Origin: a virus
DNA length: 57,029 nucleotides
Virus record (IMG/VR): IMGVR_UViG_3300018017_000001
Strand: one strand, 5' to 3'
Shown: positions 4,254 through 29,354 of the stretch, piece after piece
How the letters are laid out: every line of letters starts with the position of its first letter
Numbering within the stretch: position 1 is the first letter of the stretch
Notes under the pieces: generated by a model
Told to the model about the DNA's origin: nothing
Databases searched by the model: none
The model's input: the letters and a program-made list of their open reading frames with translations, nothing else
Position numbers and translations under genes: made by a program

Positions 4254-4267
4254 CTGCAAATTTGCAG
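4254..4267. promoter_or_regulatory. Perfect palindrome CTGCAAATTTGCAG
   Basis: Lies between stop 4268 and start 4243 of two minus-strand genes. On the minus strand it is directly followed by GGAGGAACTC and then the ATG. Confidence 0.6.
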
Positions 4268-4468
4268 CTACGCTCCAGCTTCGATTCCGAGCCGCCTATT
4301 CTGCTCATCCACGGCCTTGCGGCAAGACGCGCAGAAGCGGTCTCCGATCTCAGCTTTGTTCGAGCACTGGCCTTCGTAATTCCAGGTACTCACGAATCCG
4401 TCGCAGCGCGGAGCGTGCTTGCGCAGGACTCTTTCCACTGCTTCTCCGAGTTGGGTGTCGTTCAGCAT
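4268..4468 (-). CDS. Small Cys-containing hypothetical protein
   Basis: 66-aa ORF. AAGGAGAACACC precedes the ATG. Its stop TAG abuts the palindrome at 4254..4267. Confidence 0.5.
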   Translation of the reverse strand: MLNDTQLGEAVERVLRKHAPRCDGFVSTWNYEGQCSNKAEIGDRFCASCRKAVDEQNRRLGIEAGA

Positions 4469-4478
4469 GGTGTTCTCC

Positions 4479-4973
4479 TTAGAAATCCGCTTCGATCTCC
4501 TGCATGTTGTCGAGGAACCAGAAGTCAGCGGGCTCAGAGAACTTCATGGCCCCCTCAGCATCTATTAGAACCTGCTGAATCCTGAGTTGCCATAGTTTCC
4601 GCCCTTTGCGCTTGCAGGACTTCCAGCAATGAAGCTCGACACGGTTCTGCGCTGTCAAAAGAATGGGGAGGGCCTTTGCCGCGAGAATCTTGTCTCTATG
4701 CTCTGCCGCGTGCGCGAAGTCCGTCACCTGCACAAATAGGCATCCAACCTGATCCGAATGGCAACAGCAGAGGTCCGCGATCCCGAAGCAGTCGAATTTA
4801 TTCCTGAATCTCTCGCCGGCCGGATTCTCCTTGAACTTTGGCACGTCGAGAGAGCGCTCCACGAGAGCCACGATAAAACCTTGGCGTTCTAGGAACTTGC
4901 GCGAGCGCCGGGTTAGTAAGACAGGCTTCTTGCGCTTCGGCTTGTCGTCGGAGAAGAGAGGGGGCTGCTTCAT
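4479..4973 (-). CDS. Hypothetical protein, possible Hjc/PD-(D/E)xK-like nuclease fold with non-canonical motif
   Basis: 164 aa. FLERQGFIV..VERS...FGIADL....LFVQVT resembles a resolvase-type layout, but QVT replaces ExK. The start overlaps the upstream stop (ATGA). Confidence 0.35.
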   Translation of the reverse strand: MKQPPLFSDDKPKRKKPVLLTRRSRKFLERQGFIVALVERSLDVPKFKENPAGERFRNKFDCFGIADLCCCHSDQVGCLFVQVTDFAHAAEHRDKILAAKALPILLTAQNRVELHCWKSCKRKGRKLWQLRIQQVLIDAEGAMKFSEPADFWFLDNMQEIEADF

Positions 4974-5674
4974 TTGGCCTTCCCGTTCATCTTGATTTTG
5001 CCGTCTTTCATCTTTCGAAAGAATCGATAAATTTCTCCCCGCGACGCCATAGATGAACTGTAGTTCTCAAACGCCCCCTCTGAGTTCAATTTTTCCCACA
5101 TCTGGAGCGGAGTATAACCTTCGGCATACAATGTGATCGCTCGGTCTGTGAATGGACGAGGCCGCGGAGGCTTTGCCGGTTTCGGTTGGGCTGTTCCTGT
5201 CGCTGGGTTTTGAGTCGCAGCCAAAGCATAAGTCTCTTCTCTGCGTGATGCGTCTAAGGCAGAATCAAACTCCCGAATTTGCTCATAAGCGTTAGCACTC
5301 CAGCCCCATTTTGACAGCATCGTACGAAGGCTGATCGATACAGTCGGCACCTCAATCGGAGATGGGATAACCAAGTAGACAGGAGTATCAAAGCCTAATG
5401 CCTGTAATACCGGGCTGACGTCGGCTCGCAAAATATAGAAATCGACATGCGAACCATCCACTTTATTGTGTCGGTGGATATTGAACTGCCAAGAATGCTG
5501 GCCGTTGTGCCTGCGCGAGAATAAGGAATGCTTAACTTCCAGGCGCGTGCCATTCGGCGTATAGAGGTCAAAAGGGCTGTAATAACTAGCAATTGCCACT
5601 TTAATCCCGTGGCTGCTGAGCCAATGCCTAGCGGCTTGTTGGGCCGCGAACCACTCAGTTTGGTCGGCCTTCAT
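4970..5674 (-). CDS. PD-(D/E)xK nuclease-like protein, first gene of the leftward block
   Basis: 234 aa. SPFDLYTPNGTRLEVKHS is a D..ExK signature. Pro/Lys-rich linker and a basic C-terminal domain. No SD before the ATG, so it may be leaderless. Confidence 0.55.
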   Translation of the reverse strand: MKADQTEWFAAQQAARHWLSSHGIKVAIASYYSPFDLYTPNGTRLEVKHSLFSRRHNGQHSWQFNIHRHNKVDGSHVDFYILRADVSPVLQALGFDTPVYLVIPSPIEVPTVSISLRTMLSKWGWSANAYEQIREFDSALDASRREETYALAATQNPATGTAQPKPAKPPRPRPFTDRAITLYAEGYTPLQMWEKLNSEGAFENYSSSMASRGEIYRFFRKMKDGKIKMNGKAK

Positions 5675-5680
5675 GGGTAC

Positions 5681-5708
5681 ATATTACACGAGCGGTACAA
5701 AAAAGCAA
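5681..5708 (-). promoter_or_regulatory. Candidate leftward sigma70-like promoter (TTGCTT-N16-TAATAT), possibly giving a leaderless mRNA
   Basis: On the minus strand the -10 ends 6 nt before the ATG at 5674. A second candidate is TTGCTA (5734..5739) N17 TTTAAT (5711..5716). Confidence 0.3.
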
Positions 5709-5726
5709 GCATTAAATAAAAAGTTC

Positions 5727-5754
5727 TTGCATTTAGCAAAAATGTGTGTATTCT
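5727..5754 (+). promoter_or_regulatory. Candidate rightward sigma70-like promoter (TTGCAT-N16-TATTCT)
   Basis: Lies in the 115-bp AT-rich divergent intergenic region 5675..5789. The -35 overlaps the 13-bp palindrome TTGCATTTAGCAA (5727..5739), which resembles the 14-bp palindrome family. Confidence 0.4.
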
Positions 5755-5789
5755 GTACTTGCAAGCAAATTTAATTCCGAGGTCTTGAA

Positions 5790-6365
5790 ATGCCAATCGT
5801 TCACATTGCTTCTCGAAGAGAAGATGTTCCGCTCGATGCCGTAAACGTGCGCGATGCAAGCGAGCAGTGGAAGAATCACTCAGCATCTCCGGAGACGTTT
5901 TCCTTATGGCTCTACGATACGCACGTTGGTTTATGTGTGCGTGAGTACGAGCGAAACGGTTATGATGATTCCGATTTCTTCATGGTTGTTTACAATCCTA
6001 TAGGCGACAAGTTTGAGCACCATGAGTTCGCTAGCACGCGCGGTTGGTCCTATCCTTGCTTCGCTTCTCACGTTGACGCTATGCCTGAAATTCTAGCGAA
6101 GTATGAGGCATACCTAATCGAGCAGAAGCGGCTTGCAGAGGAACAGCGCCAGCGCATTCTCGCTGCTACTCCCGCTAAAGGGAAAGTCCTTCGTGTAGTG
6201 CGTGGTCGCAAGGTTCCCGTAGGTACTGTCGGCGTTTGTGTGTGGTTAGGCTCCTCGGCTTACGGCAAGCGAGTAGGTATTAAAGACGATCAAGGCAAAA
6301 TCCACTGGACTGCCTATGACAACGTCGAAGTTTCGGCAGTTCCTCAGACCTCGGAATCTGCCTAG
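5790..6365 (+). CDS. Hypothetical protein, first gene of the rightward block
   Basis: 191-aa ORF with protein-like composition. No family recognised. Confidence 0.6.
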   Translation: MPIVHIASRREDVPLDAVNVRDASEQWKNHSASPETFSLWLYDTHVGLCVREYERNGYDDSDFFMVVYNPIGDKFEHHEFASTRGWSYPCFASHVDAMPEILAKYEAYLIEQKRLAEEQRQRILAATPAKGKVLRVVRGRKVPVGTVGVCVWLGSSAYGKRVGIKDDQGKIHWTAYDNVEVSAVPQTSESA

Positions 6366-6423
6366 ACTGCCGACGCTGGGCCACTCTTCGGAGCGGCTTG
6401 GCGTGAGCAGCCAGGGAGGTTTT

Positions 6424-6723
6424 ATGGATTTCAGGCAAGCACGCGATCTCGACAACTACATCACCGGCCACTACGGAGCAGATCAAGACTTGGGCGATGA
6501 CCCCCTGATCGAAGATGAAGGCTACGGGATTCTAGAATCTGCGGCTGCATATTTGCAGCGCGACGATTATCCCGACTGGGACGTGCAGGAACCCGTTGGC
6601 CTAATTCGTAGCCTGCAATACGACATCGAGAACGATTACCGTTGTCAGCAATGCGGACAAGTGCTCAAGAAAAAGAATCAGAAGTGGTGTTCTCCGTTGT
6701 GCGCGAAGGCAGCGGAACTATAA
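6424..6723 (+). CDS. Acidic hypothetical protein with C-terminal CxxC..C..C
   Basis: Start moved to MDFRQARD because GGGAGG lies 4 nt upstream. 99 aa. Confidence 0.55.
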   Translation: MDFRQARDLDNYITGHYGADQDLGDDPLIEDEGYGILESAAAYLQRDDYPDWDVQEPVGLIRSLQYDIENDYRCQQCGQVLKKKNQKWCSPLCAKAAEL

Positions 6724-6733
6724 AGGAGCAGTG

Positions 6734-6952
6734 ATGCACAAATCAGACATCAAGCTCGGCAGTCACTACACCGCGAAAGTCTCAGGTCACATCGCCATCG
6801 TGCAAGTTCAATCAGAATCTCCGTACGGCGGCTGGAACGCGGTGAACATCCACACGAAGCGAGACGTGCGGATTCGCTCAGCGGCTCGGTTGCGTCACGA
6901 AGTCGCGCGGAACGCGGAAGGCAAGTGGGAAACGGCGAAGGAGCAATCATGA
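6734..6952 (+). CDS. Hypothetical small protein
   Basis: AAAGGAG lies 5 nt before ATG 6734. 72 aa. Confidence 0.55.
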   Translation: MHKSDIKLGSHYTAKVSGHIAIVQVQSESPYGGWNAVNIHTKRDVRIRSAARLRHEVARNAEGKWETAKEQS

Positions 6953-7959
6953 GCGAAGTCACTGAAGCACTAAAATCGATCACGCCTCGCAAGAGGCAAC
7001 AGATTCACACAAGTTTTATGGATGTTCTCTGGCGCTGCGAACTGCAGGCCATGTATCGCTACCTCCTCGGTATCCGACGGCCGCCGTCCGCATACCTGCA
7101 CATCGGAACCGGGGTTCACAAGTCCGTCGAGTTGGACCTCCAGAACAAGATCGTGACGGGCGAATTGCTCAAGCGTTCCGACGCCATCGAGATCGCCGGC
7201 GCGACGTTTGAGAGCAAGGCGGCTTCAGACCCCATCGAGCTTGAGCCAGACGAAAAGAAGGAGGGCAAGAGCGTCTCGCAGGTGCTCGGGGAATCGAAGG
7301 ACAAGACCGTCGCCCTTGCCGGCTTGCACTACGATAAAGCAGCGCCGATTCTGAAGCCGAAACTAGTTGAGCATCCATTCGCTATCGACATGGATGACTG
7401 GCTTCGCAAGCGGGCAAAAGAGTTGCACGAGGCAGGAGAAAAGGAAACAGATCGGGACGCGGCGAAGATTCTCCACAACGAAGCTGCCGCGATGAACTCG
7501 GCGGCCCGCAAGGGCACGGACCTTGTCGGCAAGCGGGATGTAGTTGAAGATGCCGGAGATGGAGACGAGATCATCCGCGACACGAAAACCTCCGGCAAGT
7601 CTCCGAACAAGGAAGCCGCTGAGAACTCAGACCAGTTGAGCACTTACAGCCTGGCTTCTCTCGTGTTCAACAAAAGACTGCCGAAGGCCGTAGCCCTCGA
7701 CTATCTCGTGCAGACTCCTGCGAAGCACGGCCTGAAATACGTGCCCCTAACGAGCCAGCGCACGATGGACGACATCAATGTTCTGTTGTTCCGCTTCGCG
7801 CGCTCAATTCATGCCTGGGCTGTTGCGTGCAAGACAGGTAGTTTCCTGCCGGCGAGATCAACCGACTGGTGGTGTTCCGAAAAGTTCTGCGGTTTCTGGC
7901 ACCAATGTCCGGCGGCGAAACGGCCGAAGCTCGTACAAATCGGGAAGGTTCCAGAATAG
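6949..7959 (+). CDS. PD-(D/E)xK (RecB/Cas4-like) exonuclease
   Basis: Start MSEVTEALK with GAAGGAG SD and an ATGA overlap. Motifs GKRDVVED...IIRDTKTSGK. N-terminal Cys plus C-terminal CSEKFCGFWHQC resemble Cas4-type Fe-S ligands. Lies close upstream of a RecT-like gene (two small ORFs between). Confidence 0.65.
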   Translation: MSEVTEALKSITPRKRQQIHTSFMDVLWRCELQAMYRYLLGIRRPPSAYLHIGTGVHKSVELDLQNKIVTGELLKRSDAIEIAGATFESKAASDPIELEPDEKKEGKSVSQVLGESKDKTVALAGLHYDKAAPILKPKLVEHPFAIDMDDWLRKRAKELHEAGEKETDRDAAKILHNEAAAMNSAARKGTDLVGKRDVVEDAGDGDEIIRDTKTSGKSPNKEAAENSDQLSTYSLASLVFNKRLPKAVALDYLVQTPAKHGLKYVPLTSQRTMDDINVLLFRFARSIHAWAVACKTGSFLPARSTDWWCSEKFCGFWHQCPAAKRPKLVQIGKVPE

Positions 7960-8002
7960 TAGCTTTACAGCCGTTATGCGTATCTGCAATAATGAGACTG
8001 CT

Positions 8003-8194
8003 ATGAACTTAACCAATGATGACGTACTCAGATTGTTGCGTAGGGAAAAAGGTAAGCAGACTCAGAAAGATTTCGCCGCTCGCCTCGGTATTAGCCAGCA
8101 ACACCTGTGCGACATTCTTCGCAAACGCCGATCCCCTGGTCCGACGATCTTGAAGTATTTGAAATTGGAAACAGTGTATGCGAGGCAGCGATGA
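8003..8194 (+). CDS. XRE-type helix-turn-helix DNA-binding protein
   Basis: 63 aa. KQTQKDFAARLGISQQHLCDILRKRR is a classic HTH. No clear SD; an alternative ATG is at 7976. Confidence 0.6.
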   Translation: MNLTNDDVLRLLRREKGKQTQKDFAARLGISQQHLCDILRKRRSPGPTILKYLKLETVYARQR

Positions 8195-8574
8195 AAACGT
8201 GCTTAACCTGCGGAGTAGACATGCCAGGTCGCCGTTGGAATGCTAAATATTGCTCGCGACGCTGTTGGCCTACTTCTAGGCCGAGATATGTACCTCAGCG
8301 GGGTAAGGGATTGAGTTCCAGGCTAAATAAAACTGCGACGAATCGGCTTTGGCGTAAAGCCAATCCAGAGAAGTATCGGGCGCACAATGCGGTTGCCTAT
8401 GCACTTTGGACTGGAAAATTAGACCGTTCTCAATATTGCCAGTTATGCCTCGGGACAGGGCGTATTGAATCTCATCATCCCGACTACAACCGACTGTTAG
8501 ATGTAGTGTGGCTGTGTCATTGGTGCCATTCTGCGATTGAAGGCAGATCAGTAAAATATCGCGTTACTGCTTGA
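8191..8574 (+). CDS. HNH endonuclease
   Basis: 127 aa. The ATG overlaps the upstream stop. Motifs CLTCG, CQLC...ESHHPDYNRLLDVVWLCHWCHSAIE. Confidence 0.7.
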   Translation: MKTCLTCGVDMPGRRWNAKYCSRRCWPTSRPRYVPQRGKGLSSRLNKTATNRLWRKANPEKYRAHNAVAYALWTGKLDRSQYCQLCLGTGRIESHHPDYNRLLDVVWLCHWCHSAIEGRSVKYRVTA

Positions 8575-8630: not shown

Positions 8631-9860
8631 ATGGAAACCAAGCAAGAGTCCACCGCTTTAACCCTTCCCTCGCCAGCCCAAACCCAAGAGAAAGCCGAGA
8701 TCGTCAGGAGCAGCGCCAAGGCCACGAGGCTCGCCGCGTTTACGCCTGGGAACCTCACGGAGGCCATCGCGCTGTCGAAGATGATGGCGAACTCGGAACT
8801 GGTCCCGAAAGACTACCGCGGCAAGCCAGCGAACATCCTCGTGGCGATTCAGTTCGGCTCCGAGATCGGGCTGGCCCCGATGCAGAGCTTGCAGTCGATC
8901 TCGGTCATCAACGGCAGGCCGTCGATCTGGGGCGATGCTGCTCTCGCTCTCGTGCAGGGCCATGCCGACTTCGAGGACATCTCGGAGACGACTGAAGGAA
9001 CCGTCGCGAAGTGTATTGTCAAGCGGCGCGGGCGTTCTCCGGTCGTTAGAACGTTCAGCGACGAAGATGCAATCAAGGCAGGACTGATCGCCAAAGGTGG
9101 CGTGTGGGTTCAGTACCGAGCCAGGATGCGCCAACTTCGCGCGAGAGGCTTTGCTTTGCGAGATTCTTTCGCCGACGTGTTGAAAGGCATCTCGATTGCC
9201 GAGGAGTCCATCGACACACCAGTGGACACTTCGCAGGCCAAGGTCCAGAGGGACTCGATGACTTCGGACTTGTCCATGCTCACGCCATCTCAGGAACAGA
9301 ATCGCGGTCATGAGGACACGGGCTTGGGACCGAAGAACGGTGCTCCGAAAAAAGACGAGCAGAACCAGGAGCGCAAGCCGGAGCCGTTCATCTGCTCCGA
9401 ATGCCGGAAGGTGATCAATCCCGGCGGGACCGGTCACGGATCGGACTGCAAGTTTGCAGTCAAGGCGGAGCAGGACAAGAAGACGGCCCAGTTCCAGAAG
9501 GCGCTCTACAAGATCAAATCCGTTGCAGCTAAGGTAGACAAGAAGAAAGCGGATTACCTAGAGATGGTGGTTGATCTTGTCACGAACGAGGGCGATAAGT
9601 CTGGCCAACTCTACTGTTGGCGCAAGCCGCTGCATGAATACCTGCTCGGCGGGACGATACCGGAAGGCGGGCGGGCGCTGGTCGGGGAAGTTTCGACCGA
9701 CAAGACGGACTCGAACAAGAAGTTCATTCGGCTAGAGCATATCGTCGAGCTAGATGGCGTGCCGTTCGTGAACGATGCTCCTGCCGCTCAGGCTCAGATG
9801 CCGACGGCGGAGGATGAGGAAGCCGAGATCGCTGACGGCTTGTTTGGACAGGAGTCGTGA
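8631..9860 (+). CDS. recT: RecT-family single-strand annealing protein with long C-terminal extension
   Basis: 409 aa with an AAGGAGAA SD. ..LVPKDYRGKPANILVAIQFGSEIGLAPMQSLQSISVINGRPSIWGDA.. matches the RecT core pattern as I recall it. About 200 extra C-terminal residues include CSECRK...C. Confidence 0.65.
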   Translation: METKQESTALTLPSPAQTQEKAEIVRSSAKATRLAAFTPGNLTEAIALSKMMANSELVPKDYRGKPANILVAIQFGSEIGLAPMQSLQSISVINGRPSIWGDAALALVQGHADFEDISETTEGTVAKCIVKRRGRSPVVRTFSDEDAIKAGLIAKGGVWVQYRARMRQLRARGFALRDSFADVLKGISIAEESIDTPVDTSQAKVQRDSMTSDLSMLTPSQEQNRGHEDTGLGPKNGAPKKDEQNQERKPEPFICSECRKVINPGGTGHGSDCKFAVKAEQDKKTAQFQKALYKIKSVAAKVDKKKADYLEMVVDLVTNEGDKSGQLYCWRKPLHEYLLGGTIPEGGRALVGEVSTDKTDSNKKFIRLEHIVELDGVPFVNDAPAAQAQMPTAEDEEAEIADGLFGQES

Positions 9861-10396: not shown

Positions 10397-10759
10397 ATGA
10401 ATCATTACGCGATTATAGGTCGTTCGGTTCCTTGTCCTACCTGTAAGGCCGCAGTGGGACAAATGTGTTGCTTCTCTAGACTAGAACGCCAAAGAGAACG
10501 CGCTCCATATGGGTATGCAATCTTCCACGCAAAACGCCTACGACTAGCGTATTCATCTCTTGAGTACCAGGCCAAAGTTAGGGCAATCGTGCAGAAACGA
10601 AGCGGACAGATGAGGCCGCCGAAAAAGCAGAAGAAAGAAGTCGGTCAAGGCAACAACCAACGAAGCGGAGTGCGTGTTAAATGCGCTCAAGGGAAACATA
10701 TGGAATGTCTCGCCAGTAAATGCTCGTGTGAGTGCCACACCGTAAAGGAGCCAAAATGA
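10397..10759 (+). CDS. Zinc-finger-like basic protein
   Basis: Start at MNHYAIIG. CPTCKAAVGQMC near the N-terminus and a C-terminal Cys/His cluster (CLASKCSCECH). Confidence 0.5.
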   Translation: MNHYAIIGRSVPCPTCKAAVGQMCCFSRLERQRERAPYGYAIFHAKRLRLAYSSLEYQAKVRAIVQKRSGQMRPPKKQKKEVGQGNNQRSGVRVKCAQGKHMECLASKCSCECHTVKEPK

Positions 10760-10935
10760 CTCTAAGACTCTCAACCCGTCTAGTCGACGGCCAGATCGTG
10801 CTAGATTCGCGTTTAGAGGCGTTGAAACGGCTTACCCTAGGGAAAGCACAGCCAAGGGCTAAACAACGCTCTAGGGGCAAGGAAACGCTGGCAAACCGCA
10901 TCCTGGCGGCGGTGCTGCGCAAGAATCAGGCTTAG
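10756..10935 (+). CDS. Hypothetical small basic protein
   Basis: AAAGGAG SD. The ATG overlaps the upstream stop (ATGA). 59 aa. Confidence 0.45.
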   Translation: MTLRLSTRLVDGQIVLDSRLEALKRLTLGKAQPRAKQRSRGKETLANRILAAVLRKNQA

Positions 10936-10955
10936 AGGGCAGAAAACAGGCGTAA

Positions 10956-10969
10956 CTGAAAATTTGCAG
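10956..10969. promoter_or_regulatory. Palindrome family member CTGAAAATTTGCAG (1 mismatch)
   Basis: Intergenic. It is followed by ACGGAGGCTGAA and then ATG 10982. Confidence 0.5.
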
Positions 10970-10981
10970 ACGGAGGCTGAA

Positions 10982-11218
10982 ATGACAGAAACAATCCGCG
11001 AACTCGGAGAACGTCTCGTCAAGCAAGGCAAGTTGAAGCAGGACGACCTCGACAAGTACGTCGAGCAACCGGAACCGGAAGAAACTCCAGCACCAGCACC
11101 CTTGCTTCCTCCGCCCGAAACGCGAGAAGCTCGGCAAGTTCGGCAGATGAAAAGTCTTGCTGCGTTCGAAGCTCTGCGCTGGTGCAGGAAGTTTTACCCG
11201 TGGAGATGCTTGGCGTGA
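10982..11218 (+). CDS. Hypothetical small protein
   Basis: GGAGG lies 6 nt before ATG 10982. 78 aa. Confidence 0.55.
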   Translation: MTETIRELGERLVKQGKLKQDDLDKYVEQPEPEETPAPAPLLPPPETREARQVRQMKSLAAFEALRWCRKFYPWRCLA

Positions 11219-11379
11219 AGAAAATCAACATCTGTTTGTTTCTGATCCATGCACATGATTACCTGTGCAGTCTAGGCGGTCCGAACTGGCAGAATCAACT
11301 AGAAGCCGCACAACTGTGCTGGAAAGCAGCGATTGTAGCTCATGCCGAGGGACTGAGTTTGTTCGCATGGGATGAGTAG

Positions 11380-11393
11380 CTGCAAATTTGCAG
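11380..11393. promoter_or_regulatory. Perfect palindrome CTGCAAATTTGCAG
   Basis: Read directly. It lies 25 nt upstream of the -35 of the candidate promoter at 11419..11448. Confidence 0.6.
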
Positions 11394-11418
11394 TAACAAG
11401 ATTTTCACAACTTGGGGC

Positions 11419-11448
11419 TTTACACGGAGCTTTTCTTTTGCTTATACT
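11419..11448 (+). promoter_or_regulatory. Candidate sigma70-like promoter TTTACA-N18-TATACT
   Basis: Read directly in the atypical region 11219..11966. The predicted start is near 11455, just before a TTCCC-GTGA-GGGAA hairpin (11454..11467). Confidence 0.45.
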
Positions 11449-11966
11449 TATCTTTCCCGTGAGGGAATGTGGAGCGGGCGGTCCCGTTGGTAGGGCAACC
11501 TTCGCCGGTACCGCCAACACCGCCCATCCTAATCCTTCCCAGGTATCGGCGAATGCAAGACTCCCAAAACAATTCGGTTTGTATTGCTTGCGCCGGGAAA
11601 CCTATGTCTGCTCTCCTATCAAGTTCGGGGGCGATGAGCCAGTCGCCACGTGCCTTTCCGGAAGGTTCACTCGCAGCGCCTTCGCTCCCGATTCATGCTC
11701 TAGGACGGTTGCTTCGCGGCACAGCTTGCATCCGAGAAAAAACGGGCCGCTGTCTTACGTTAACTCCGCCAAGGTCGGAGAAGAGAAGCAAGGCTGTCGA
11801 AATCCAGGCAACGGGCGGGTGGTCGATCCCGCAAACACGCATACGCCCTGGTCTTTCACGGACAAGATTCACATACTAAGACGTACCTACTTCTCAAGAA
11901 CGATCCGAGCAGACCTGAATGAGCTTCTAAGTCCGTAAGGGAATGCGTGTTTTCCAGGAGAGAGTA

Positions 11967-12371
11967 ATGGGTGATGATCTTAGACTTACGCCTCCAGATG
12001 GAAACGGTAGCCGCTTCGCGGACTTCCGAGACTTGGTAGAACGAGCCTACCGATGGCGCTGGAAGCGGCCTTGCCCGTGGTCTGGAGCAGAAGCCAATCA
12101 ACTTTCACGCTTGCTGAAATGCAGCCCGACTTTAGATGTTCGTGAGTTCGCACGTTGGCTCAAGAACTATTTTGTTTCGGAAGACTACCCGCCCGGAGAA
12201 CGACCCTCTAGATTTCTGCCCCGTATTTATAACTACTCAGTCGATGCAGTAGATCGTTTTTCGCGTCCAGCGCATAACGGGAACGGAAAGAGACCTCCGG
12301 ACATGGTGAATGCTCTCGACATCAAGAAAAAGCAACTCGCAGAAGCGCGATCGCGCGGGGAGATTGACTGA
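11967..12371 (+). CDS. Hypothetical protein upstream of DnaB (possible helicase loader or replication initiator)
   Basis: Start at MGDDLRL with GGAGAG SD. The stop overlaps the dnaB ATG (TGATG). Function is inferred from position only. Confidence 0.5.
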   Translation: MGDDLRLTPPDGNGSRFADFRDLVERAYRWRWKRPCPWSGAEANQLSRLLKCSPTLDVREFARWLKNYFVSEDYPPGERPSRFLPRIYNYSVDAVDRFSRPAHNGNGKRPPDMVNALDIKKKQLAEARSRGEID

Positions 12372-13648
12372 TGAGTTACGAACTCTCCGCCGAGATGACA
12401 CTGGTCGGCGCCCTGTTGACCACAGATGTTTCTCTCGAAGCCGTCGATCAAGCCGCTTTGCTCGTTTCTCCTGACGAGTTTCAGGACTCCCGCGCCGCGA
12501 ACCTTTACCGCGCCATCCTTGCGCTGAGGACGAAAAACCTGTTGCCGGATGCTCCCGGATGCATCGCGGAGCTAGAAAACCTGAAGATCAAGACCGAAGA
12601 TGCCTCTCTGCTTTTCTCGCAAGCATTGGATTCCGTTCCACTTCCGGGACAAGTTCAAAGATACGCGAAGGTGATTCGGGAGAAGATCGAGGCGAAACGG
12701 ATCTCGCGGACCATTCAGGTGGCTGGCGCCCGTCTTGCTGAAGGCGAATCCATCTCTTGGCTGAAGTCCGAGTTGATGGCCGAACTCGGGCAGATTGAAG
12801 CCGAGCAGAAAACCTCGGAAGATTCTGTTGTGGCTGACGCTCACGCGAAAGTCGTCGGAGCGATTCGGGACCGAATCAACGGAGACACGTCGAGCAGTGG
12901 ATTGCGTCTCGGTCTGCCTGCGCTTGACCAACTAACCACTGGCATCAATCGCGAGGAGTTGTGGGTTGTCGGCGGAATGCCTGGGCGCGGCAAAACTGCG
13001 CTGGCCCTGCAATCGGCGATGAACCTAGCGGGAGACGGATTCCCTGTTTATTTCATCTCTCTCGAAATGAGCCGCTACGCCGTGATGCGGCGCTTGCTGA
13101 AGATGAAGTTCGGCACGGCGGCCGTCGAGTATCCCAACTCAAAGCAACTCTCCGCCCTGTTCGAGTACGAGAAGGAACTGCGTCAGCTTCCGTTTTACCT
13201 GAACGATTCATCGTCGCTGGAGATCGAGGAACTGATCTCTAGGGCTAGGATGCGCATCGCTCGTTCGGGAATCCGTCTGGTCATCGTGGACTACATCCAA
13301 CTGATCCGCTTCGAGGGGAAAGATCGCCGGGAGCGAGTGAGTGAGTGTACGGACAGACTCCGCAGGCTGGCGAAGGACACGGGAGTTCCCGTGATGGCTC
13401 TGTCCCAACTCCGGCGATCTCAGAACGTGAACGACCGTCCGACGATGATCGACCTGAAGGAGTCCGGGGACATCGAGGCTCACGCTCACGTGATCTTGCT
13501 GCTGTACATGCCGGTCGGACAAGACGGAGCGTTCACGGGGGAAGATGAGTTGATCGTAGGCAAGCAACGGGAAGGACCAACCGGGAAGGTGCCAATAGCT
13601 TTTCTCGGGACGAAGTGCCAGTTTTACGAGAGGGAGACGCACGTATGA
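12371..13648 (+). CDS. dnaB: DnaB-family replicative helicase
   Basis: 425 aa. Walker A GGMPGRGKTALAL, then FISLEMS, VIVDYIQLI, ALSQLRR and DLKESGDIEAHA. The order matches the DnaB C-terminal RecA-like domain. Confidence 0.85.
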   Translation: MSYELSAEMTLVGALLTTDVSLEAVDQAALLVSPDEFQDSRAANLYRAILALRTKNLLPDAPGCIAELENLKIKTEDASLLFSQALDSVPLPGQVQRYAKVIREKIEAKRISRTIQVAGARLAEGESISWLKSELMAELGQIEAEQKTSEDSVVADAHAKVVGAIRDRINGDTSSSGLRLGLPALDQLTTGINREELWVVGGMPGRGKTALALQSAMNLAGDGFPVYFISLEMSRYAVMRRLLKMKFGTAAVEYPNSKQLSALFEYEKELRQLPFYLNDSSSLEIEELISRARMRIARSGIRLVIVDYIQLIRFEGKDRRERVSECTDRLRRLAKDTGVPVMALSQLRRSQNVNDRPTMIDLKESGDIEAHAHVILLLYMPVGQDGAFTGEDELIVGKQREGPTGKVPIAFLGTKCQFYERETHV

Positions 13649-13845
13649 TCTATCCATCCATGGACCATTTAAGTTTAGAGCAACGGCGCATGTACTGCGA
13701 CAAGGCTATGCGGAGATGTAAAACGGAACTAGCGGCCAAAGTCTTGAGCAATGAATTTCAGCGCGTTCATGACATCTACAGAAACGGACAGTTGAGGCGG
13801 AAGGCCACGCGCGACGTGAGGATCGAATGTCTGGAGAAAGAATGA
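13645..13845 (+). CDS. Hypothetical small protein
   Basis: ATGA overlap with the dnaB stop. GGGAGA upstream. 66 aa. Confidence 0.45.
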   Translation: MIYPSMDHLSLEQRRMYCDKAMRRCKTELAAKVLSNEFQRVHDIYRNGQLRRKATRDVRIECLEKE

Positions 13846-14003
13846 CTGAACTTCAGAAGATGAAAGAGCAGATGCTCTACTCCGAGTTCATCCAGCAGAA
13901 GTCGCAAGCGAACTGCATGGACGGCTTCGATCCTCTCTGGTTGCCGGAGTTTCTGTTCCCGTTCCAGTCGGTGCTCGTCGATTGGTCCGTTCGCAACGGA
14001 TGA
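13842..14003 (+). CDS. Short ORF resembling the N-terminus of a helicase or methylase-associated protein (possible gene remnant)
   Basis: 53 aa, with an ATGA overlap to the upstream gene. ..FDPLWLPEFLFPFQSVLVDWSVRNG then stop. A different frame continues open (..ELARLRAAYGLEMSGDRFGVSVGELDWLAELHRLLYEVGND) up to gene 14120. Confidence 0.3.
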   Translation: MTELQKMKEQMLYSEFIQQKSQANCMDGFDPLWLPEFLFPFQSVLVDWSVRNG

Positions 14004-14119: not shown

Positions 14120-14812
14120 ATGACTAAGAAAAAGAAACCAGAAATCATCCCGCCGAAGAAAACTCAGTCCCGCAAAGAGCGTGCTCTGTACTGCACTCAA
14201 TACCTGCAAGAGGTAGAAGCCCGGTCAAATTGGGTCGCTCTCGCTCGCGTGTTGATAGAATGCGACCAAGATGAGTTGTGGCGCGAAACAAACTGCGACT
14301 GCTGGGATGAGTGGGTTCACAAGTTTGCCCCAACGTCGTACAGGAAATGCATGGGAGCGAAGCGCAGGTTCCTGAAGCTATATCACGACATTCCCATTAA
14401 GGCTCTCGTAGATGCGAAGCCGGAAACCGCCGAATATATTTCTCGCTGCGTGCCGCCGGCTGCTCTTAAAAGTCCTGTGATTCTCGAAGCGCTTCCGTTG
14501 CCACCGCGCAAAGCGATCAAACTGCTGAAGGCAGCGATGCCTGAGCAGCATCTCGAATCAATCGAAAAGACGATTCTTAATCAGGCCGAGAGCCAGCACG
14601 ACGCGTTCAACGACGCACTCGAAGCCTATCGGTTCATGAAGAACGACGAGGGCGCGTCGAAGGAGAATTTCGTCGAGTTCCTGATCTCGGAGTGGATGGA
14701 CAGCGTGGCGGAGAACAACCGCACGATCCGGGAGAACTGGGAAGCGCACAAGGAAGAACGGGAGCCAACGAGTTTTGTAACTGCAAATTTGCAGGCGGAA
14801 GCGAGGGAGTGA
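14120..14812 (+). CDS. Hypothetical protein
   Basis: 230-aa ORF. The palindrome is in frame near its 3' end (..VTANLQAEARE). Confidence 0.6.
   Translation: MTKKKKPEIIPPKKTQSRKERALYCTQYLQEVEARSNWVALARVLIECDQDELWRETNCDCWDEWVHKFAPTSYRKCMGAKRRFLKLYHDIPIKALVDAKPETAEYISRCVPPAALKSPVILEALPLPPRKAIKLLKAAMPEQHLESIEKTILNQAESQHDAFNDALEAYRFMKNDEGASKENFVEFLISEWMDSVAENNRTIRENWEAHKEEREPTSFVTANLQAEARE
14781..14794. promoter_or_regulatory. Perfect palindrome CTGCAAATTTGCAG
   Basis: It lies 17 nt upstream of ATG 14812, followed by GCGGAAGCGAGGGAG (the SD). Confidence 0.6.
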
Positions 14813-15726
14813 TGGAAACTGATCTGTTCGGGCACACTGCGGTTGATAAACTCCCCGGCGGGGCGATGTGCCAGAGGTTTATTGAGCCACCGTTCACGGC
14901 TCTCGATACAAAGTCGGGGCGCTGGCAAGAGAGAAAAAGGGATTGGATTGCATTGGGAATTGAGAGCGAAATTGGTCGCGCTGAAAATTTGCTCAGCATA
15001 AGCGATACCTGTGAGGAGTTCATGTCGGGCGCTAAGCAATCGAGCATTTTTGACCAAACTTTATGTGAACTTGTCTACTCATGGTTCATGCCCGAAAAGT
15101 CTTTGCTCGGCATCCTCGACCCCTTTGCAGGTGGCAGCGTGCGTGGCATAGTAGCCTCACGTCTTGGCTACGACTACACAGGCATAGACCTTCGCCAAGA
15201 GCAGATTGATGCAAATCTGAAACAGGCCCGCGAGATTCCCGGCAAGCGTCAGCCTCGGTGGATTTGCGGCGATTCCTGCAAAATTGATGAGATGGTGGGC
15301 GATGAGTACGATCTGCTTTTCACCTGCCCGCCCTATTGGAATCTTGAACGCTATTCTGACGACCCGCGCGATCTGAGCACGCTCGACAACTGGAATGAGT
15401 TCCTTGTCAAGTACCAACGCATTATGCTCCTTGCAGCCCGCAGGCTGAAAAGCCAACGCTTCGCCGTGGTAGTGGTGGGCAATATCCGCGATGATGAAGG
15501 TTTCATTCGGGACATGGGCGGGCCAACCGCATCAGCTCTGCTCGGGGCAGGCTTTCGGTTGTATAACGAGTTTGTGCTGCTCACGCCAATCGGATCGCTT
15601 CCGCTGCGCGTAAATGGTCAATTTGCACGAGGGCGCAAGGCAGGCTCGGCGCACCAGTATGTGATGTGCTTCTTTCGTGGCAATCCTGATTCAATTCGGT
15701 GCGATTTCACGGAGTTTCAGCCATGA
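14812..15726 (+). CDS. DNA amino-methyltransferase (N6A/N4C type)
   Basis: Start at METDLFG (TGATG overlap, GAGGGAG SD). Motif I ILDPFAGGSVRG. Motif IV LFTCPPYWNLERY. Confidence 0.7.
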   Translation: METDLFGHTAVDKLPGGAMCQRFIEPPFTALDTKSGRWQERKRDWIALGIESEIGRAENLLSISDTCEEFMSGAKQSSIFDQTLCELVYSWFMPEKSLLGILDPFAGGSVRGIVASRLGYDYTGIDLRQEQIDANLKQAREIPGKRQPRWICGDSCKIDEMVGDEYDLLFTCPPYWNLERYSDDPRDLSTLDNWNEFLVKYQRIMLLAARRLKSQRFAVVVVGNIRDDEGFIRDMGGPTASALLGAGFRLYNEFVLLTPIGSLPLRVNGQFARGRKAGSAHQYVMCFFRGNPDSIRCDFTEFQP

Positions 15727-16358: not shown

Positions 16359-16656
16359 AGTTACCAAAGACGGGCGCACCAAGAGAACCGGCAAGGATTA
16401 CACCGAGTTCCGTCTCGCGCTTTACAAGTTGCAGTCGGCTCGGTGCTTTCAGTGCGGGCGGTGGACGTTCTTGCTGCATCCGATTGAGTGGGATGATTCC
16501 TTCCATGTGGATCATGCGGATGGCCGGGGCATTGGTGGTTCAAAGCGAGATGACACTTTCCGGGCTTGTCACGGACTATGCGGCAAGTGCCATCGAATCA
16601 AACATCACCAGCAGATGCCCGAGACTTCAAAAAAGGACTTGGAGAAGAAACCATGA
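16351..16656 (+). CDS. HNH endonuclease
   Basis: Start at MIEVTKDG. CFQCG...HVDHADGRG...CHGLCGKCHRIKH. Confidence 0.65.
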   Translation: MIEVTKDGRTKRTGKDYTEFRLALYKLQSARCFQCGRWTFLLHPIEWDDSFHVDHADGRGIGGSKRDDTFRACHGLCGKCHRIKHHQQMPETSKKDLEKKP

Positions 16657-17108: not shown

Positions 17109-17486
17109 ATGCCGCGAGCCGCTCTCTTTTCTCGGAACCAATCTCCTGAAGACAAACCAGCCCACTATCTCTCCCGCAAGTTCATTCCCTTCCTGCTCGC
17201 TCTCAAGATAGACGGCGTCGCTGCTGCCGTAGCGCTCGGCCCGAACAAACTCCAACTGAACACAGACGAGCCCTGGATTCAAACGAAGCGCAGATTCTTG
17301 TTCTCGCAAGCTTGCATAGCGATTAAGGTCGTTCCGAAGCCGGAACTCTGCAGCCCGAACGAATCTCTCGATCTCGCATATCCGGAACCGCTTCGCGTGA
17401 CGGTGCACAATCCCCATCCCGGGTTCCTAGCTGCTTGCCAGAAGGCTCGGGCTGCAAATTTGCAGGCGAAGGGCATGAATGGATGA
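17109..17486 (+). CDS. Uncertain ORF (125 aa); competes with antisense ORF 17064..17417
   Basis: No SD. It ends ..ARAANLQAKGMNG with the palindrome in the same frame (ANLQA) as in genes 14120 and 28104. The two candidates have similar GC3, so I cannot decide between them. Confidence 0.3.
   Translation: MPRAALFSRNQSPEDKPAHYLSRKFIPFLLALKIDGVAAAVALGPNKLQLNTDEPWIQTKRRFLFSQACIAIKVVPKPELCSPNESLDLAYPEPLRVTVHNPHPGFLAACQKARAANLQAKGMNG
17452..17465. promoter_or_regulatory. Perfect palindrome CTGCAAATTTGCAG
   Basis: It is followed by GCGAAGGGCATGA and then ATG 17479. Confidence 0.6.
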
Positions 17487-18386: not shown

Positions 18387-18811
18387 GAGGCAAACCGCGA
18401 GACGGAAGCAAGGGCGGACGTCCGCGCAAGGGAAAGAACAAGATTGACCCTACGGTTGTTCCTGAAGAGCGACAAGTCTTCGAACTGGCGAAGCTGAGCA
18501 TGTCAGGAGAAGAAATAGCTTCGATTCTGGGACTTACACGTGATCGTCTCTACAAAGACGCTAACTTAAATACAGCTTTAAACAAAGGCCACCAGGAATG
18601 CAACGCCAGTCTGCGCAGAAAGCAGTACCAGGTCGCCATGCGCGGCAACGTTACGATGCTCATTTGGCTCGACAAGCAACGCCTCGGCGGCAAAGATAAG
18701 AGCGAGTTCGCCGGCCCGGACGGTGGACCGATTCCTTTGACTCTCGCCGCGAAGAAAGACGCGCTCGAAAGCATTCTTGAGCGCGTAGCTTCAAAGGCTC
18801 CTGCGCAATGA
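18383..18811 (+). CDS. terS: Terminase small subunit
   Basis: 142 aa. GGRPRKG..., HTH EIASILGLTRDRLY, then RGNVTMLIWLDKQRLGGKDK. This is the usual TerS pattern as I recall it. It lies immediately upstream of the TerL ATPase ORF. Confidence 0.7.
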   Translation: MRGKPRDGSKGGRPRKGKNKIDPTVVPEERQVFELAKLSMSGEEIASILGLTRDRLYKDANLNTALNKGHQECNASLRRKQYQVAMRGNVTMLIWLDKQRLGGKDKSEFAGPDGGPIPLTLAAKKDALESILERVASKAPAQ

Positions 18812-23873: not shown

Positions 23874-23874
23874 C

Positions 23875-26664: not shown

Positions 26665-26709
26665 ACCAGAGTTTCTGCCGGAACCACACCGGCCGATTGA
26701 GGAGCCTTT

Positions 26710-28074
26710 ATGATCACGGAATCACAAGCCGCGCCGAGCGGAACCACACCGTCTGACGGCGCAGCGCAGAGCGGAACCACACCCTCTGTCCCGCAAGAAT
26801 TCTCATCGTTTCTCGGCGTTGAACCCGAGACCTTGCCTTCTCTCCAGCCCGAACAGAAACCGGAACCCACGGGCGCGGAAGCCGAACCACAGGCGGAAGC
26901 AGGAGCCGAGGCTGAGGTCGAAGAACAACCCGCAGAAGCGGAAGCCGGAGCACAGGCGGAAGAGCTACCTGCGTTGGAGGAAACGGACGACGACTGGCTG
27001 CTGACCACAGAACAGAAGAAGGAGTTTCCCGACGATCAGTTGGCGGAGTACGCGAGGCGCCGAGGCTACAACTGGGAGCAGATTCAAGGCGACAAGAGCC
27101 TGAAGCGGCTGCTCCAAGACAAGCTCAACAGCGACATCCTGATCGCGCAACAGCGGCAGGCCGAGGCGGACGAGGGCTTCTTCGGAACGGGAGAAGAACA
27201 GCAACTTCCGGAAGAAGAAGCCGCAGCGGAAGCCGAGCCTGCTCCACAAGTCGATCCCCGGCAGGAGTATTACGCGGGAGTCGACAGACTCGTTCAGCAG
27301 TACGACCAGAGTACGTTGAAGGAAATGGGCAACGGATTGCTGAACGCTATGGGCGTGAAAACGGACGACAAGTTCATCGGAGACTTGACGCGAAGGCTCG
27401 AAGACCCGAATCTTCCTCCGCAAACGCGGGCGGAGATTCAGCAGCACGTGGCCTTGGCGCGAAGCTCGGAGAAGATCGGTCAGACGCTGGCGCGCTATGG
27501 AACTGATCTGACGTTGACGCTGCTTCGCTCGCCCGAGATCATTCAGCAGGCGATCGAAACGGTCGCTCCCGGAATGCTCGGAGCGTTTCAGGAAGCTCAG
27601 TCGATGCGGACCTGCGCGCAAGCGTGGGCGCAAGTCCGGGGAAGGCAAGACCAGCAGGGAAGGCAGGTGTACGAGAACCTTCCAGCCTACGGGACGCCCG
27701 AGTTCAGGGCGCTGGTCTACAAGGCGGAGCGGCAGCTTGGGCTCGGGAAAGACGAACTCGGGTCGATGACTTTCCGCGACGCCTACGGGAACCCTCTCCC
27801 TGCGGATCAGAACGCTTTGCGCGGATACGCCTTGGTCGCGCGGGTGGCGAGCGGACAGAAAGTGACTCCGCGAGCGGTGACGCAGGCCGTGCAGGCAGGG
27901 CGCCGTCAGGAACAAACGCAGCAGCAGAGGCGCGCCGCGGGGCGCGCGTTGGGGGCCGGTGCAACGAGCCGCCAGTTCGAACAGCCCGCTCAGGAAGACG
28001 CGGTGGGATCGGCATTGCGACAAGCGATCCTGGACCAGAACGAGTCAGGCCGCATCTTGCCGAAGGGGATGTGA
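26710..28074 (+). CDS. Scaffolding-like protein
   Basis: 454 aa. Very acidic E/A/P/Q-rich N-terminus and helical Q/R/E-rich body. It lies directly upstream of the major capsid gene. Confidence 0.45.
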   Translation: MITESQAAPSGTTPSDGAAQSGTTPSVPQEFSSFLGVEPETLPSLQPEQKPEPTGAEAEPQAEAGAEAEVEEQPAEAEAGAQAEELPALEETDDDWLLTTEQKKEFPDDQLAEYARRRGYNWEQIQGDKSLKRLLQDKLNSDILIAQQRQAEADEGFFGTGEEQQLPEEEAAAEAEPAPQVDPRQEYYAGVDRLVQQYDQSTLKEMGNGLLNAMGVKTDDKFIGDLTRRLEDPNLPPQTRAEIQQHVALARSSEKIGQTLARYGTDLTLTLLRSPEIIQQAIETVAPGMLGAFQEAQSMRTCAQAWAQVRGRQDQQGRQVYENLPAYGTPEFRALVYKAERQLGLGKDELGSMTFRDAYGNPLPADQNALRGYALVARVASGQKVTPRAVTQAVQAGRRQEQTQQQRRAAGRALGAGATSRQFEQPAQEDAVGSALRQAILDQNESGRILPKGM

Positions 28075-28103
28075 AGGACTGAAGGCGGCGGAGGGCACAA
28101 ACC

Positions 28104-29354
28104 TTGGCTGAACAAAACATAAGAACATTCGCCGACTACGCGACCGAAGGTTCTTCGGTCCGCGACGTGAGCGTCGACATGCTCCTGCTGGAGCCTGACC
28201 GAACGCCGCTCTACGTCTTGACGAACAACATGAAGCGGAAGAAGTCCGTCTACAACCCGACGATTGAATGGCCCGAGGATCAGGATTTGCCAATGCTCGG
28301 GACCGTATCGAACGGCACGACGAACCTCTCTTCCGCCGCGACGAACATCCCGGTGCAGGACGTGACGATCTTCGGAGTGAACGACGTGGTGCAGATTCCC
28401 ACCTTCGGCTTGACGACGGTAGGGACCGGCATCGAGGAACTCGCTCTGATCACCACGGTCACGATCGGCGGTGGAACGCCTTCGACGGTTTCGTACCAGT
28501 TGGGCGCGGTCGCCGGAACGATCACCGTCACGCGCGGCTTCGCCGGCACGACTCCAGGATCCGTGGGAGCAACGCAAGCGATCCGCATCGTGGCCACGGC
28601 GGCGCAGGAAGGATCGGCCATCCAGACGCCTCGCTCTCCGTACCTCAACCTGAAGACGAGCTACGCGCAGACGTTTGAAACGCCGATCCAGATCACGCTG
28701 CAAGCGGCCTCGACCCGTCAGTACTACGACAGGAACGAGCGGGCAAGACTGCAAATGCTCGCCATGCGCCGCGCGAAGCTGGAACTGGAGGATGCCGGAA
28801 TCTTCGGCGTTGCCTCTTCGAGCGTCAGCGGCACGTCGACGAGGCTGACCTCGATGGGCATCCGCTCGATCATCTCGCCGTTCGTCACCGACATGGGCAC
28901 GACGGCGACCTATCTCTCGTTCCTGACCGCGAACGAGTTCACGTTCCGTTACGGCTCGCCGCAGAAGCTGCTGATCGCGTCTCCGCTGTTCAAGACCGCT
29001 CTTGACTACTGGGCCGCGAACAAGCAGTTGGTGAAACCGGACATCGACCTCTTCGGCGTCTCGCTGAAGAAGTTCATCACGTCGAACGGCACGTGGCTCC
29101 TGGCGAACAACTTCAACTTCGGAGATTTCGGCGCGTCGACGAACTACTCGTTCGAGGCTCTGGGCATCGATCTTCCGTCGATCGAGTTCTGCCCGCTGTC
29201 CGAGAACGGGTTCAACAACGACACGCACCTGATCACGAACTACAACACGACGAACCCGAAGATCATCTACGATCTCGTGCTGACGATCGCGGGTTGGCGT
29301 TGTAGGCACCCTGCGAGACACGCCCGTTTTACAAATTTGCAGGCGTTCTCGTAA
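28104..29354 (+). CDS. Major capsid protein (HK97 fold, DUF5309/SU10-like)
   Basis: TTG start with GGAGG 9 nt upstream. The N-terminus ..DVSVDMLLLEPDRTPLYVLTNNMKRKKSVYNPTIEWPEDQDL matches the characteristic start of this capsid family as I recall it. 416 aa. Confidence 0.75.
   Translation: MAEQNIRTFADYATEGSSVRDVSVDMLLLEPDRTPLYVLTNNMKRKKSVYNPTIEWPEDQDLPMLGTVSNGTTNLSSAATNIPVQDVTIFGVNDVVQIPTFGLTTVGTGIEELALITTVTIGGGTPSTVSYQLGAVAGTITVTRGFAGTTPGSVGATQAIRIVATAAQEGSAIQTPRSPYLNLKTSYAQTFETPIQITLQAASTRQYYDRNERARLQMLAMRRAKLELEDAGIFGVASSSVSGTSTRLTSMGIRSIISPFVTDMGTTATYLSFLTANEFTFRYGSPQKLLIASPLFKTALDYWAANKQLVKPDIDLFGVSLKKFITSNGTWLLANNFNFGDFGASTNYSFEALGIDLPSIEFCPLSENGFNNDTHLITNYNTTNPKIIYDLVLTIAGWRCRHPARHARFTNLQAFS
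29330..29342. promoter_or_regulatory. Palindrome family member TACAAATTTGCAG (half-site variant)
   Basis: Lies at the 3' end of the capsid gene, in frame as ..TNLQA. Confidence 0.45.

Follow-up and report, generated by a model that had tools for sequence, protein, structure and literature searches.

The stoperators of Cluster A mycobacteriophages, recognised by immunity repressors of the L5 gp71 type, are 13-bp asymmetric sites bound by a monomer with two domains and set in one orientation relative to transcription (PMC9283540, PMC6550527). In plasmid RK2, KorA and KorB act on the operators OA (TGTTTAGCTAAACA) and OB (TTTAGCGGCTAAA), 13-14-bp palindromes that occur at several loci, relate to promoters and make up a global regulon, KorB being a ParB-family protein with an N-terminal CTP-binding domain that works as a sliding clamp (PMC11790492, PMC4889941). 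Cluster K mycobacteriophages contain start-associated sequences (SAS), asymmetric repeats of ~13-17 bp that include the AGGAG Shine-Dalgarno (SD) core, lie 3-7 bp before the start codon and still have no known function, together with extended start-associated sequences (ESAS), inverted repeats proposed to be protein-binding DNA sites (PMC3203893). Here we analyse a 14-bp perfect palindrome, CTGCAAATTTGCAG, that recurs in the genome of an uncultured soil or peat phage, represented by the IMG/VR record IMGVR_UViG_3300018017_000001 (57,029 nt; the window, meaning the whole stretch of DNA analysed). We propose, with a probability of roughly 0.45, that these palindromes (core TGCAAATTTGCA) are dispersed operators bound by the product of gene 14120-14812 (gp14120), a putative dimeric helix-turn-helix protein that would block early transcription.

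A mismatch-tolerant search located nine sites with at most two mismatches (four exact, four with one mismatch and one with two; Table 1), where 0.18 were expected from 100 dinucleotide shuffles and 0.25 from a second-order Markov model. Counts at three mismatches (3 observed, 2.4 expected) and at four (21 against 20.5) are at background, so that the set of sites is sharply bounded. A control of 785 kb of unrelated metagenome loci, drawn from a DnaB-profile scan of metagenome contigs and holding mostly distant DnaB genes and no close relatives, yielded no site at one mismatch or fewer and three at two mismatches; together with the shuffles, it rules out chance and base composition as the source of the sites. 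Isolated half-sites (TTTGCAG) occur at about the level expected for a 7-mer in 57 kb (~3-4 per strand), which makes the whole palindrome the unit. The original prediction had held chance recurrence to be negligible and had proposed a scan against shuffled controls, and this count bears it out, as it does the exact copies at 4254, 11380, 14781 and 17452. Its coordinates and most of what it says about the junctions are right. The copy at 10956 has one mismatch, the one at 29329-29342 has two, and three intragenic copies (6545, 9446 and 45928) had been missed. The stretch from 4.2 to 17.5 kb, with its early recombination, replication and methylase genes, contains seven of the nine sites. Across all nine, TTTGCAG on the right never varies, and mismatches are confined to the left half and the centre. 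The same phage was assembled in at least ten other metagenome samples at 99.97% identity or more with all palindrome sites present, which rules out an assembly artefact.

The palindrome does not travel with the phage backbone. The closest relatives by DnaB (L119, 69% identity; L120, 57%; L203, 50%; L202, 49%) contain, in ~84 kb, no site at two mismatches or fewer, no other recurrent palindrome and no gp14120 homologue. An exact-pattern scan of IMG/VR led instead to contigs distantly related to the window (L009, L024/L106, L059 and L062). When all open reading frames (ORFs) of the window were tabulated by presence or absence in motif-positive and motif-negative relatives, homologues of gene 14120-14812 were the sole family exclusive to motif-bearing genomes; two other families that accompany the motif in some lineages, the HNH-like protein (16351-16656) and a 164-aa protein (4479-4973), are also found in the motif-free L120. 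A search that started from the gp14120 family gave the same association: every family-encoding contig fetched carries the palindrome, most of them in several copies, with four in L204/L207 (the same contig as L106), five one-mismatch variants in L205, six in L206, five with the core TGCAAATTTGCA in L226 (the same contig as L062), two within 5.8 kb in L210, and at least one each in L208, L209, L211, L212 and L213. When all fetched loci were searched with a profile of the family, it turned up in motif-bearing lineages only. We put the chance that gp14120 binds the palindrome at about even.

The binder favoured by the original prediction was the XRE-type helix-turn-helix protein (8003-8194), for which the sites would be operators or promoter elements. 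Its gene is present with a good sigma-70-like promoter (7964-7993), and L059 has an XRE homologue (46% identity) together with one exact site. The family does not track the motif, however: a homologue occurs in the motif-free L202 (E = 2e-5), whereas none was detected in the fetched parts of the motif-rich L204/L207, L206, L208 and L226, and the match in L205 is weak (E = 0.0015). Immunity operators of the XRE/Cro-CI kind cluster at divergent promoters and at the gene of a co-inherited regulator; here neither the promoter of the XRE gene nor the main divergent promoter region of the early genes (~5680-5790) has a copy of the palindrome, and the sites are too near start codons for promoter elements. 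The sequence TTGCATTTAGCAA at 5727 in that region, earlier taken for a related palindrome, has the reverse complement TTGCTAAATGCAA, pairs only through TTGC/GCAA and has no specific relation to the motif. We consider XRE binding barely credible.

Further support for a role at the DNA level comes from the gp14120 family's own gene. Eight relatives were checked, and in each of them the core GCAAATTTGC is found near the 5' end of the family's coding sequence, 34-49 nt in, where it encodes x-A-N-L-x with GCA-AAT-TTG as the A-N-L codons. Nearby conserved F, A, I and D residues vary synonymously (TTC/TTT, GCC/GCG/GCT, ATC/ATT/ATA and GAC/GAT). Fixed A-N-L codons beside neighbours whose codons vary indicate a constraint on DNA, not on protein. 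The flanking residues follow the outer palindrome bases, TANLQ going with CTG..CAG, SANLH with GTG..CAC and GANLR with GTG..GCG, and the ANL peptide falls in a tail predicted to be disordered (pLDDT, the predicted local distance difference test score, below 50). An N-terminal ANL[QRHP] signature is present in 15 of the top 150 family members, the closest ones only. The ANLQ peptides that the motif also encodes near the ends of window genes were considered as a protein-level element, for example a protease site, and this was ruled out by the invariant codons beside varying neighbours, by the absence of such a tail from an L059 homologue and by the predicted disorder.

The gp14120 family comprises 475 clusters (50% identity) at E <= 0.001 among 1.84 billion representative proteins, with a typical length of ~200-230 aa. 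Two AlphaFold models, one for the window protein (pLDDT 83) and one for P0121 (pLDDT 79), are all-helical, with a well-predicted core of ~120 residues and long C-terminal helices. For both models, the only Foldseek matches with a low root-mean-square deviation (3.7-5.4 Å over 100-125 columns) were DNA-binding domains of ParB/Spo0J/Noc proteins, several of which have structures in complex with palindromic parS; their scores are weak (probability 0.4-0.7, template modelling score to the target 0.35-0.51). One viral match is annotated as ParB-like. S73 and R75 are invariant in a 14-sequence family alignment and lie in the segment W..AAPKSARTIFYHVG, which would likely be the turn and recognition helix.

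Were gp14120 the binder, the palindromes could also be centromere-like or loading sites in the manner of parS, serving plasmid-prophage segregation, compaction or methyltransferase recruitment. The plasmid-prophage N15 has four dispersed centromere sites. The weak ParB-like fold match would fit such a role, as would several dispersed palindromic sites, the small serine recombinases (resolvases) near the family gene in L207, L208 and L211, and the translational coupling (TGATG, 14810-14814) of the gp14120 gene to a methyltransferase with a ParB-N-like and an N6_N4 domain. That methyltransferase neighbour, however, is specific to this phage; the modelled gp14120 lacks the N-terminal CTPase domain of ParB, the ParB-N-like domain being on the next gene; no ParA-type ATPase, integrase or plasmid replication gene was seen among the genes scanned, several mid-sized ORFs lying outside that scan; and the family has no prophage or plasmid relatives among 185,579 species genomes. 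We regard a parS-like function as highly unlikely.

The surroundings of the sites are listed in Table 1. As originally described, four of them (4254, on the minus strand, 10956, 14781 and 17452) lie close to an SD, here measured at 0-10 nt, and 10-17 nt from a start codon, one (11380) precedes a sigma-70-like pair, TTTACA-18-TATACT at 11419-11448, the best of its region, and one (29329) precedes the hairpin after the capsid-like gene. The junction at 4254 reads tag-CTGCAAATTTGCAG-ggaggaactcATG, and the order stop, motif, SD and start recurs in relatives (L106:7565, L207:12645, L205:3610, L206:12395 and L059:5345). The motif itself contains no SD core, and at five of the nine sites there is no start codon next to it. 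The proposal of an operator or promoter of a phage-specific regulon thus stands as far as a two-fold symmetric, enriched, early-region DNA site is concerned, and falls as to a promoter element, because the sites lie 8-17 nt from start codons inside operons and the promoter-like pair is found near 11380 alone. The motif itself as a sigma-54 or sigma-70 promoter was ruled out, on inspection, by spacing.

As had been noted, three of the intragenic sites (14781, 17452 and 29329) encode (A/T)NLQA shortly before the stop codon; that the frame is always the same does not hold, since 9446 reads DCKFAV and 45928 reads FCIFAG. The bias is explained by the other two frames placing a Cys codon (TGC) in the protein. 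At 9446 and 45928, the two sites in a Cys frame, the residue looks functional: it belongs to a zinc-ribbon segment (CxxC...C) in the RecT-like protein and to a signal-peptide-like N-terminus in the other. The 9446 site keeps its position in L205:2477 and L206:18 (CTGCAAATaTGCAG, DCKYAAKAEQD), while the 45928 site may in part coincide with coding. The L059 homologue of gene 17109-17486 ends in ...KARLECR* and lacks the motif, so the C-terminal tail of the window gene appears to be an add-on, a by-product of the motif. In this tightly packed genome a fixed 14-mer is tolerated mainly in stop-to-SD gaps, in dispensable last codons or in the benign A-N-L-Q frame, and the association with ribosome-binding sites most simply reflects where a 14-mer fits.

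The same layout could mean that the element acts in mRNA, as a short hairpin 5' of ribosome-binding sites that would control the translation of a set of early genes as an operator, or direct the processing of their transcripts, or stabilise them. Four sites in the window and five in relatives have the motif beside the SD, its end 8-17 nt ahead of the start codon; in the intragenic variants at 6545, 9446 and 45928 the 5-bp stem is intact and the changes are confined to positions 6-7, in the would-be loop; and GTGCAAATTTGCAC in L208 is a compensatory double change. The exact-site hairpin is weak, however (-4.6 kcal/mol, a 5-bp stem, no U tract), the variants at 10956 and 29329 are unable to fold (0.0 kcal/mol), and site segments with their flanks are no more stable than shuffles (z +1.1 to -1.4). 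The AAUU of the supposed loop is strongly conserved and itself symmetric, neither of which an RNA loop requires, and there are also sites that no start codon follows: in the middle of genes, past the end of an operon (11380) and 34-49 nt into the family gene. The palindrome has no Rfam match, and of the marks of an intrinsic terminator or structured RNA (a stable G+C-rich hairpin, a U tract, covariation, an Rfam family) it shows none that would class it as either. Symmetric double changes suit an RNA or a DNA model equally, and the conserved self-complementary centre and the sites distant from starts favour DNA recognition; action in mRNA seems to us decidedly unlikely.

Table 1. Palindrome sites, the candidate binder and other features of the window
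Feature	Position	Strand	Match to CTGCAAATTTGCAG	Context
Site	4254..4267		exact	fills gap from stop of minus-strand gene 4268-4468 to SD/ATG (4243) of gene 3659-4243
Site	6545..6558		one mismatch, CTGCAtATTTGCAG	middle of gene 6424-6723, reads AAYLQ
Site	9446..9459		one mismatch, CTGCAAgTTTGCAG	RecT-like gene 8631-9860, C-terminal zinc-ribbon-like part, DCKFAVKAEQD
Site	10956..10969		one mismatch, CTGaAAATTTGCAG	46-nt gap between genes 10756-10935 and 10982-11218; ATG 12 nt on
Site	11380..11393		exact	abuts stop of gene 11200-11379
Site	14781..14794		exact	last 10 codons of gene 14120-14812 (TANLQAEARE*); ATG 14812 (ParB-N-domain/methyltransferase) 17 nt on
Site	17452..17465		exact	last codons of gene 17109-17486 (AANLQAKGMNG*); ATG 17479 13 nt on
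Site	29329..29342		two mismatches, ttACAAATTTGCAG	last codons of capsid-like gene 28104-29354, upstream of hairpin
Site	45928..45941		one mismatch, CTGCAtATTTGCAG	signal-peptide-like N-terminus (MMIKKLLLLFCIFAG) of gene 45899-50275
gp14120, candidate palindrome binder	14120-14812	+		230 aa, all-helical, helix-turn-helix-like segment (W65...APTSYRKCM)
PD-(D/E)XK exonuclease	6949-7959			early gene
XRE helix-turn-helix protein	8003-8194			early gene; good sigma-70-like promoter, 7964-7993
HNH-type endonuclease	8191-8574			PHROG 'endonuclease'
RecT-like protein	8631-9860			C-terminal part zinc-ribbon-like
DnaB	12371-13648			replication gene; 11967-12371 precedes
Methyltransferase with ParB-N-like domain (N6_N4)	14812-15726
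Second methyltransferase	15723-16358
HNH-like small protein	16351-16656			CxxC..HVDH..CxxCHxxKH; Pfam E = 0.046 (below threshold)

The genes from 14120 to 16656 form a cluster of gp14120, the ParB-N-like/N6_N4 methyltransferase, a second methyltransferase and the HNH-like protein, a layout that resembles a restriction-modification or DNA-marking module. The sites could be thought of as targets or hot spots of DNA cutting by an HNH-like nuclease, perhaps guided by gp14120, or as junction cassettes that promote module exchange. An HNH-like gene directly follows the gp14120 homologue in L205, L207, L208, L209 and L211-L213, the window copy (16351-16656) being 55-60% identical. A junction of G and stop, motif and acggaggctgaaATG is near-identical at 10953-10984 of the window and at 5320-5362 (minus strand) of L059, upstream of unrelated ORFs (MTETIREL... 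and MDWREYMM..., respectively), so that the motif with acggaggctgaaATG looks like a portable inter-gene linker or recombination boundary. A G and a stop triplet abut the motif at six junctions, two of the triplets being out of frame, and the add-on look of the C-terminal ANLQ tails, absent from the L059 homologue, would likewise suit exchange. On the other side, the HNH-like family also occurs in the motif-free L120, its assignment falls short of the Pfam cut-off (E = 0.046 and 0.01), a phage that cuts its own genome at nine places requires an unexplained protection step, and no mosaic breakpoints have been mapped to the sites. We consider cutting or exchange unlikely, while the HNH-like neighbour, the coupled ParB-N methyltransferase and the L059 junction keep a DNA-processing or recombination role open. 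In a variant of this idea, gp14120 would be no regulator but a targeting subunit that docks the enzyme encoded beside it on the palindromes, in most relatives an HNH-like nuclease and in this phage the ParB-N-domain methyltransferase, a second methylase and the HNH-like protein, to nick or modify the phage's own genome at fixed positions, with portable junction cassettes that drive module exchange as a by-product. Such nicks would be comparable to the site-specific ones in T5 and some Pseudomonas phages, which have long been unexplained. Such a targeting role strikes us as highly improbable.

According to the operator reading that we favour, a dimer of gp14120, as a perfect 14-bp palindrome implies, would recognise the double-stranded site, and the bound protein would most likely block or slow transcription through the early and replication operons, by roadblock or occlusion; gp14120 would probably control its own gene too. 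By analogy with stoperators, ESAS and KorA/KorB, transcription control in early operons together with autoregulation would be the likely effect. We infer binding, dimer symmetry and repression from the enrichment of the sites, the nucleotide constraint, the family co-occurrence and the helix-turn-helix-like fold, and our confidence in a roadblock specifically is lower than that in gp14120 as the binder.

Several observations weigh against this proposal. The fold matches are not significant (Foldseek E ~1-5), and no sequence link to ParB or to a known helix-turn-helix family was found with Pfam, PHROGs and PDB profiles of up to 120 sequences. In the putative recognition helix no family member diverges further than the window protein (SYRKCMGAK against SARTIFYHV), although the window and L204 share an identical motif, and the window gene lacks the 5' site of the relatives, carrying one at its 3' end instead. 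The co-occurrence is based on ~6 family-positive and 4 family-negative lineages, mostly as pieces of +-10 kb, and some ascertainment bias enters because L009 and L024 seeded the alignment and the family was partly found via motif-bearing contigs; L208 has one good copy in 15.6 kb. Finally, the outer-arm mismatches in the window are all in the left half, a hint of some directionality, for which a simple symmetric operator offers no explanation.

The 14-mer also occurs outside this group. In unrelated IMG/VR contigs, 26 of 105 exact occurrences have at least three extra palindromic pairs where 1.6 would be expected, with variable arms (GGCTTGA..TCAAGCC, AACCTT..AAGGTT, AATT..AATT); the loci include L010, L022, L051, L056, L083, L087, L088, L110 and L111, and their fetched parts contain no member of the gp14120 family. 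The nine window sites show no such extension. We judge these longer palindromes to be a generic property of biological palindromes and not evidence on this element; they may reflect other regulators with the same core. In L007, L027, L099, L117 and L118 (GC ~0.38-0.40), which are unrelated to the window, two copies lie 33 bp apart inside a coding repeat, so a repeated peptide motif can likewise give rise to the 14-mer.

A 123-bp terminal overlap (bases 1-123 are 100% identical to 56907-57029) shows the window to be a complete phage genome, circularly closed or terminally redundant, of ~56.9 kb. It had no match by megablast to 50,697 phage records, and gene calls were made partly via L214, another record of the same phage (offset +4119). 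Named DnaB matches are distant and come from Acidobacteria genomes assembled from metagenomes, which tentatively suggests Acidobacteria as the host group. Genes run leftward from 1 to 5886 and mostly rightward in the remainder. Scans of the whole window for tRNAs and Rfam families gave no match, and the genes scanned included no recognisable repressor, integrase or other part of a lysogeny module.

Downstream of the 11380 site, ~570 bp (11394-11966) show no codon-position GC signature in any frame (0.52/0.54/0.54, against ~0.58/0.42/0.65 in real genes); an automatic pipeline nevertheless predicts an ORF of 188 aa in this stretch. A structured RNA was ruled out for this stretch by ordinary folding (z = 0.31) and the lack of an Rfam match; it may be a replication origin or leader. 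Directly after the 17452 site, gene 17479-17877 encodes a 132-aa protein whose N-terminus, MDERRHHHHHHHHHLASIKIAFWRHHH, has a natural run of nine histidines. The hairpin at 29364-29398 is terminator-like, with a 15-bp stem followed by AGUUUUC (z = -4.05), and was missed by a simple terminator scan. Upstream of the gp14120 gene, a 58-aa ORF (13827-14003) resembles the N-terminus of a 734-aa helicase/methyltransferase of L120 (34% over 47 aa) and is apparently the remnant of a gene replaced there by the gp14120 module. In the leftward region, a DUF7666 gene (2280-3053, minus strand) contains a 27-bp unit in ten tandem copies (2421-2782), a pentapeptide-repeat/DUF5758 gene (3069-3629, minus strand) contains a 15-bp unit ten times (3380-3586), and an exact 52-nt direct repeat (1700-1751 and 1951-2002, 251 bp apart) includes an SD-like stretch. 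Sugar-metabolism genes lie in the structural region, glycosyltransferase-like at 30451-32055 and UDP-glucose dehydrogenase at 34141-35415 (PHROG E = 9e-71).

If the operator reading is true, it assigns a function to a widespread phage family that has no name and no Pfam or PHROG entry, and the operator inside the regulator's own gene becomes a clean case of protein sequence dictated by a DNA site. The motif would also be a practical marker of early-gene boundaries in these uncultured phages. To our knowledge, almost nothing is known about regulation in this phage group, which DnaB similarities tentatively link to Acidobacteria.

A literature search for the exact 14-mer returned nothing beyond crystallography oligonucleotides and the luxXc box CTGGCAAATTTGCCAG of LuxR-family regulators (PMC10013830). 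The outer CTG...CAG and the inner CAAATTTG of that box are identical to those of the palindrome, whereas the spacing of the lux box, an 18-20-bp dyad with CTG-N10-CAG, is 2 bp longer than the CTG-N8-CAG found here. The window encodes no LuxR/GerE-type protein, the sole related match being a sub-threshold Sigma70_r4_2 in 18383-18811, and the resemblance is probably coincidence. With SAS and ESAS the palindrome shares its place in the non-structural half of the genome (here seven of nine sites), its position a short way upstream of starts, and its conservation before unrelated genes; it differs in being a palindrome 5' of the SD and 8-17 nt from the start that also occurs within genes and after an operon end. 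Like the RK2 operators, it is a palindromic site at several loci of a mobile genome, and the fold of gp14120 weakly resembles a ParB DNA-binding domain. Unlike KorB, gp14120 has no CTP-binding domain and no sequence similarity to ParB, the phage sites adjoin ribosome-binding sites instead of promoters, and the genes scanned with Pfam and PHROGs included no recognisable ParA ATPase or KorA-like partner.

The likeness to stoperators is one short site in many copies, largely in within-operon gaps (those at 4254 and 10956, with 11380 abutting a stop) and so not confined to promoters, with a single, here putative, phage-encoded DNA-binding protein and a block of transcription elongation as the proposed action. 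The differences are a perfect 14-bp palindrome of undefined orientation, fewer copies (nine), an unrelated and unnamed protein family, and a phage in which no lysogeny functions were recognised. The system would thus be a palindromic, dimer-type counterpart to the mycobacteriophage stoperators in a group tentatively tied to Acidobacteria. The closest match in layout is the conserved inverted repeat (CIR) bound by the phiC31 repressor, a highly conserved 17-bp sequence that Ingham et al. (1994) and Wilson et al. (1995) reportedly placed both at the repressor gene, for autoregulation, and at many intergenic positions of the early region; its Streptomyces host group, sequence and repressor family differ from those here. 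This type of control is already known, and no new category of biology is opened; what is new is the site, the protein family, the palindromic, presumably dimeric mode of recognition and an operator within the coding sequence of its own putative regulator.

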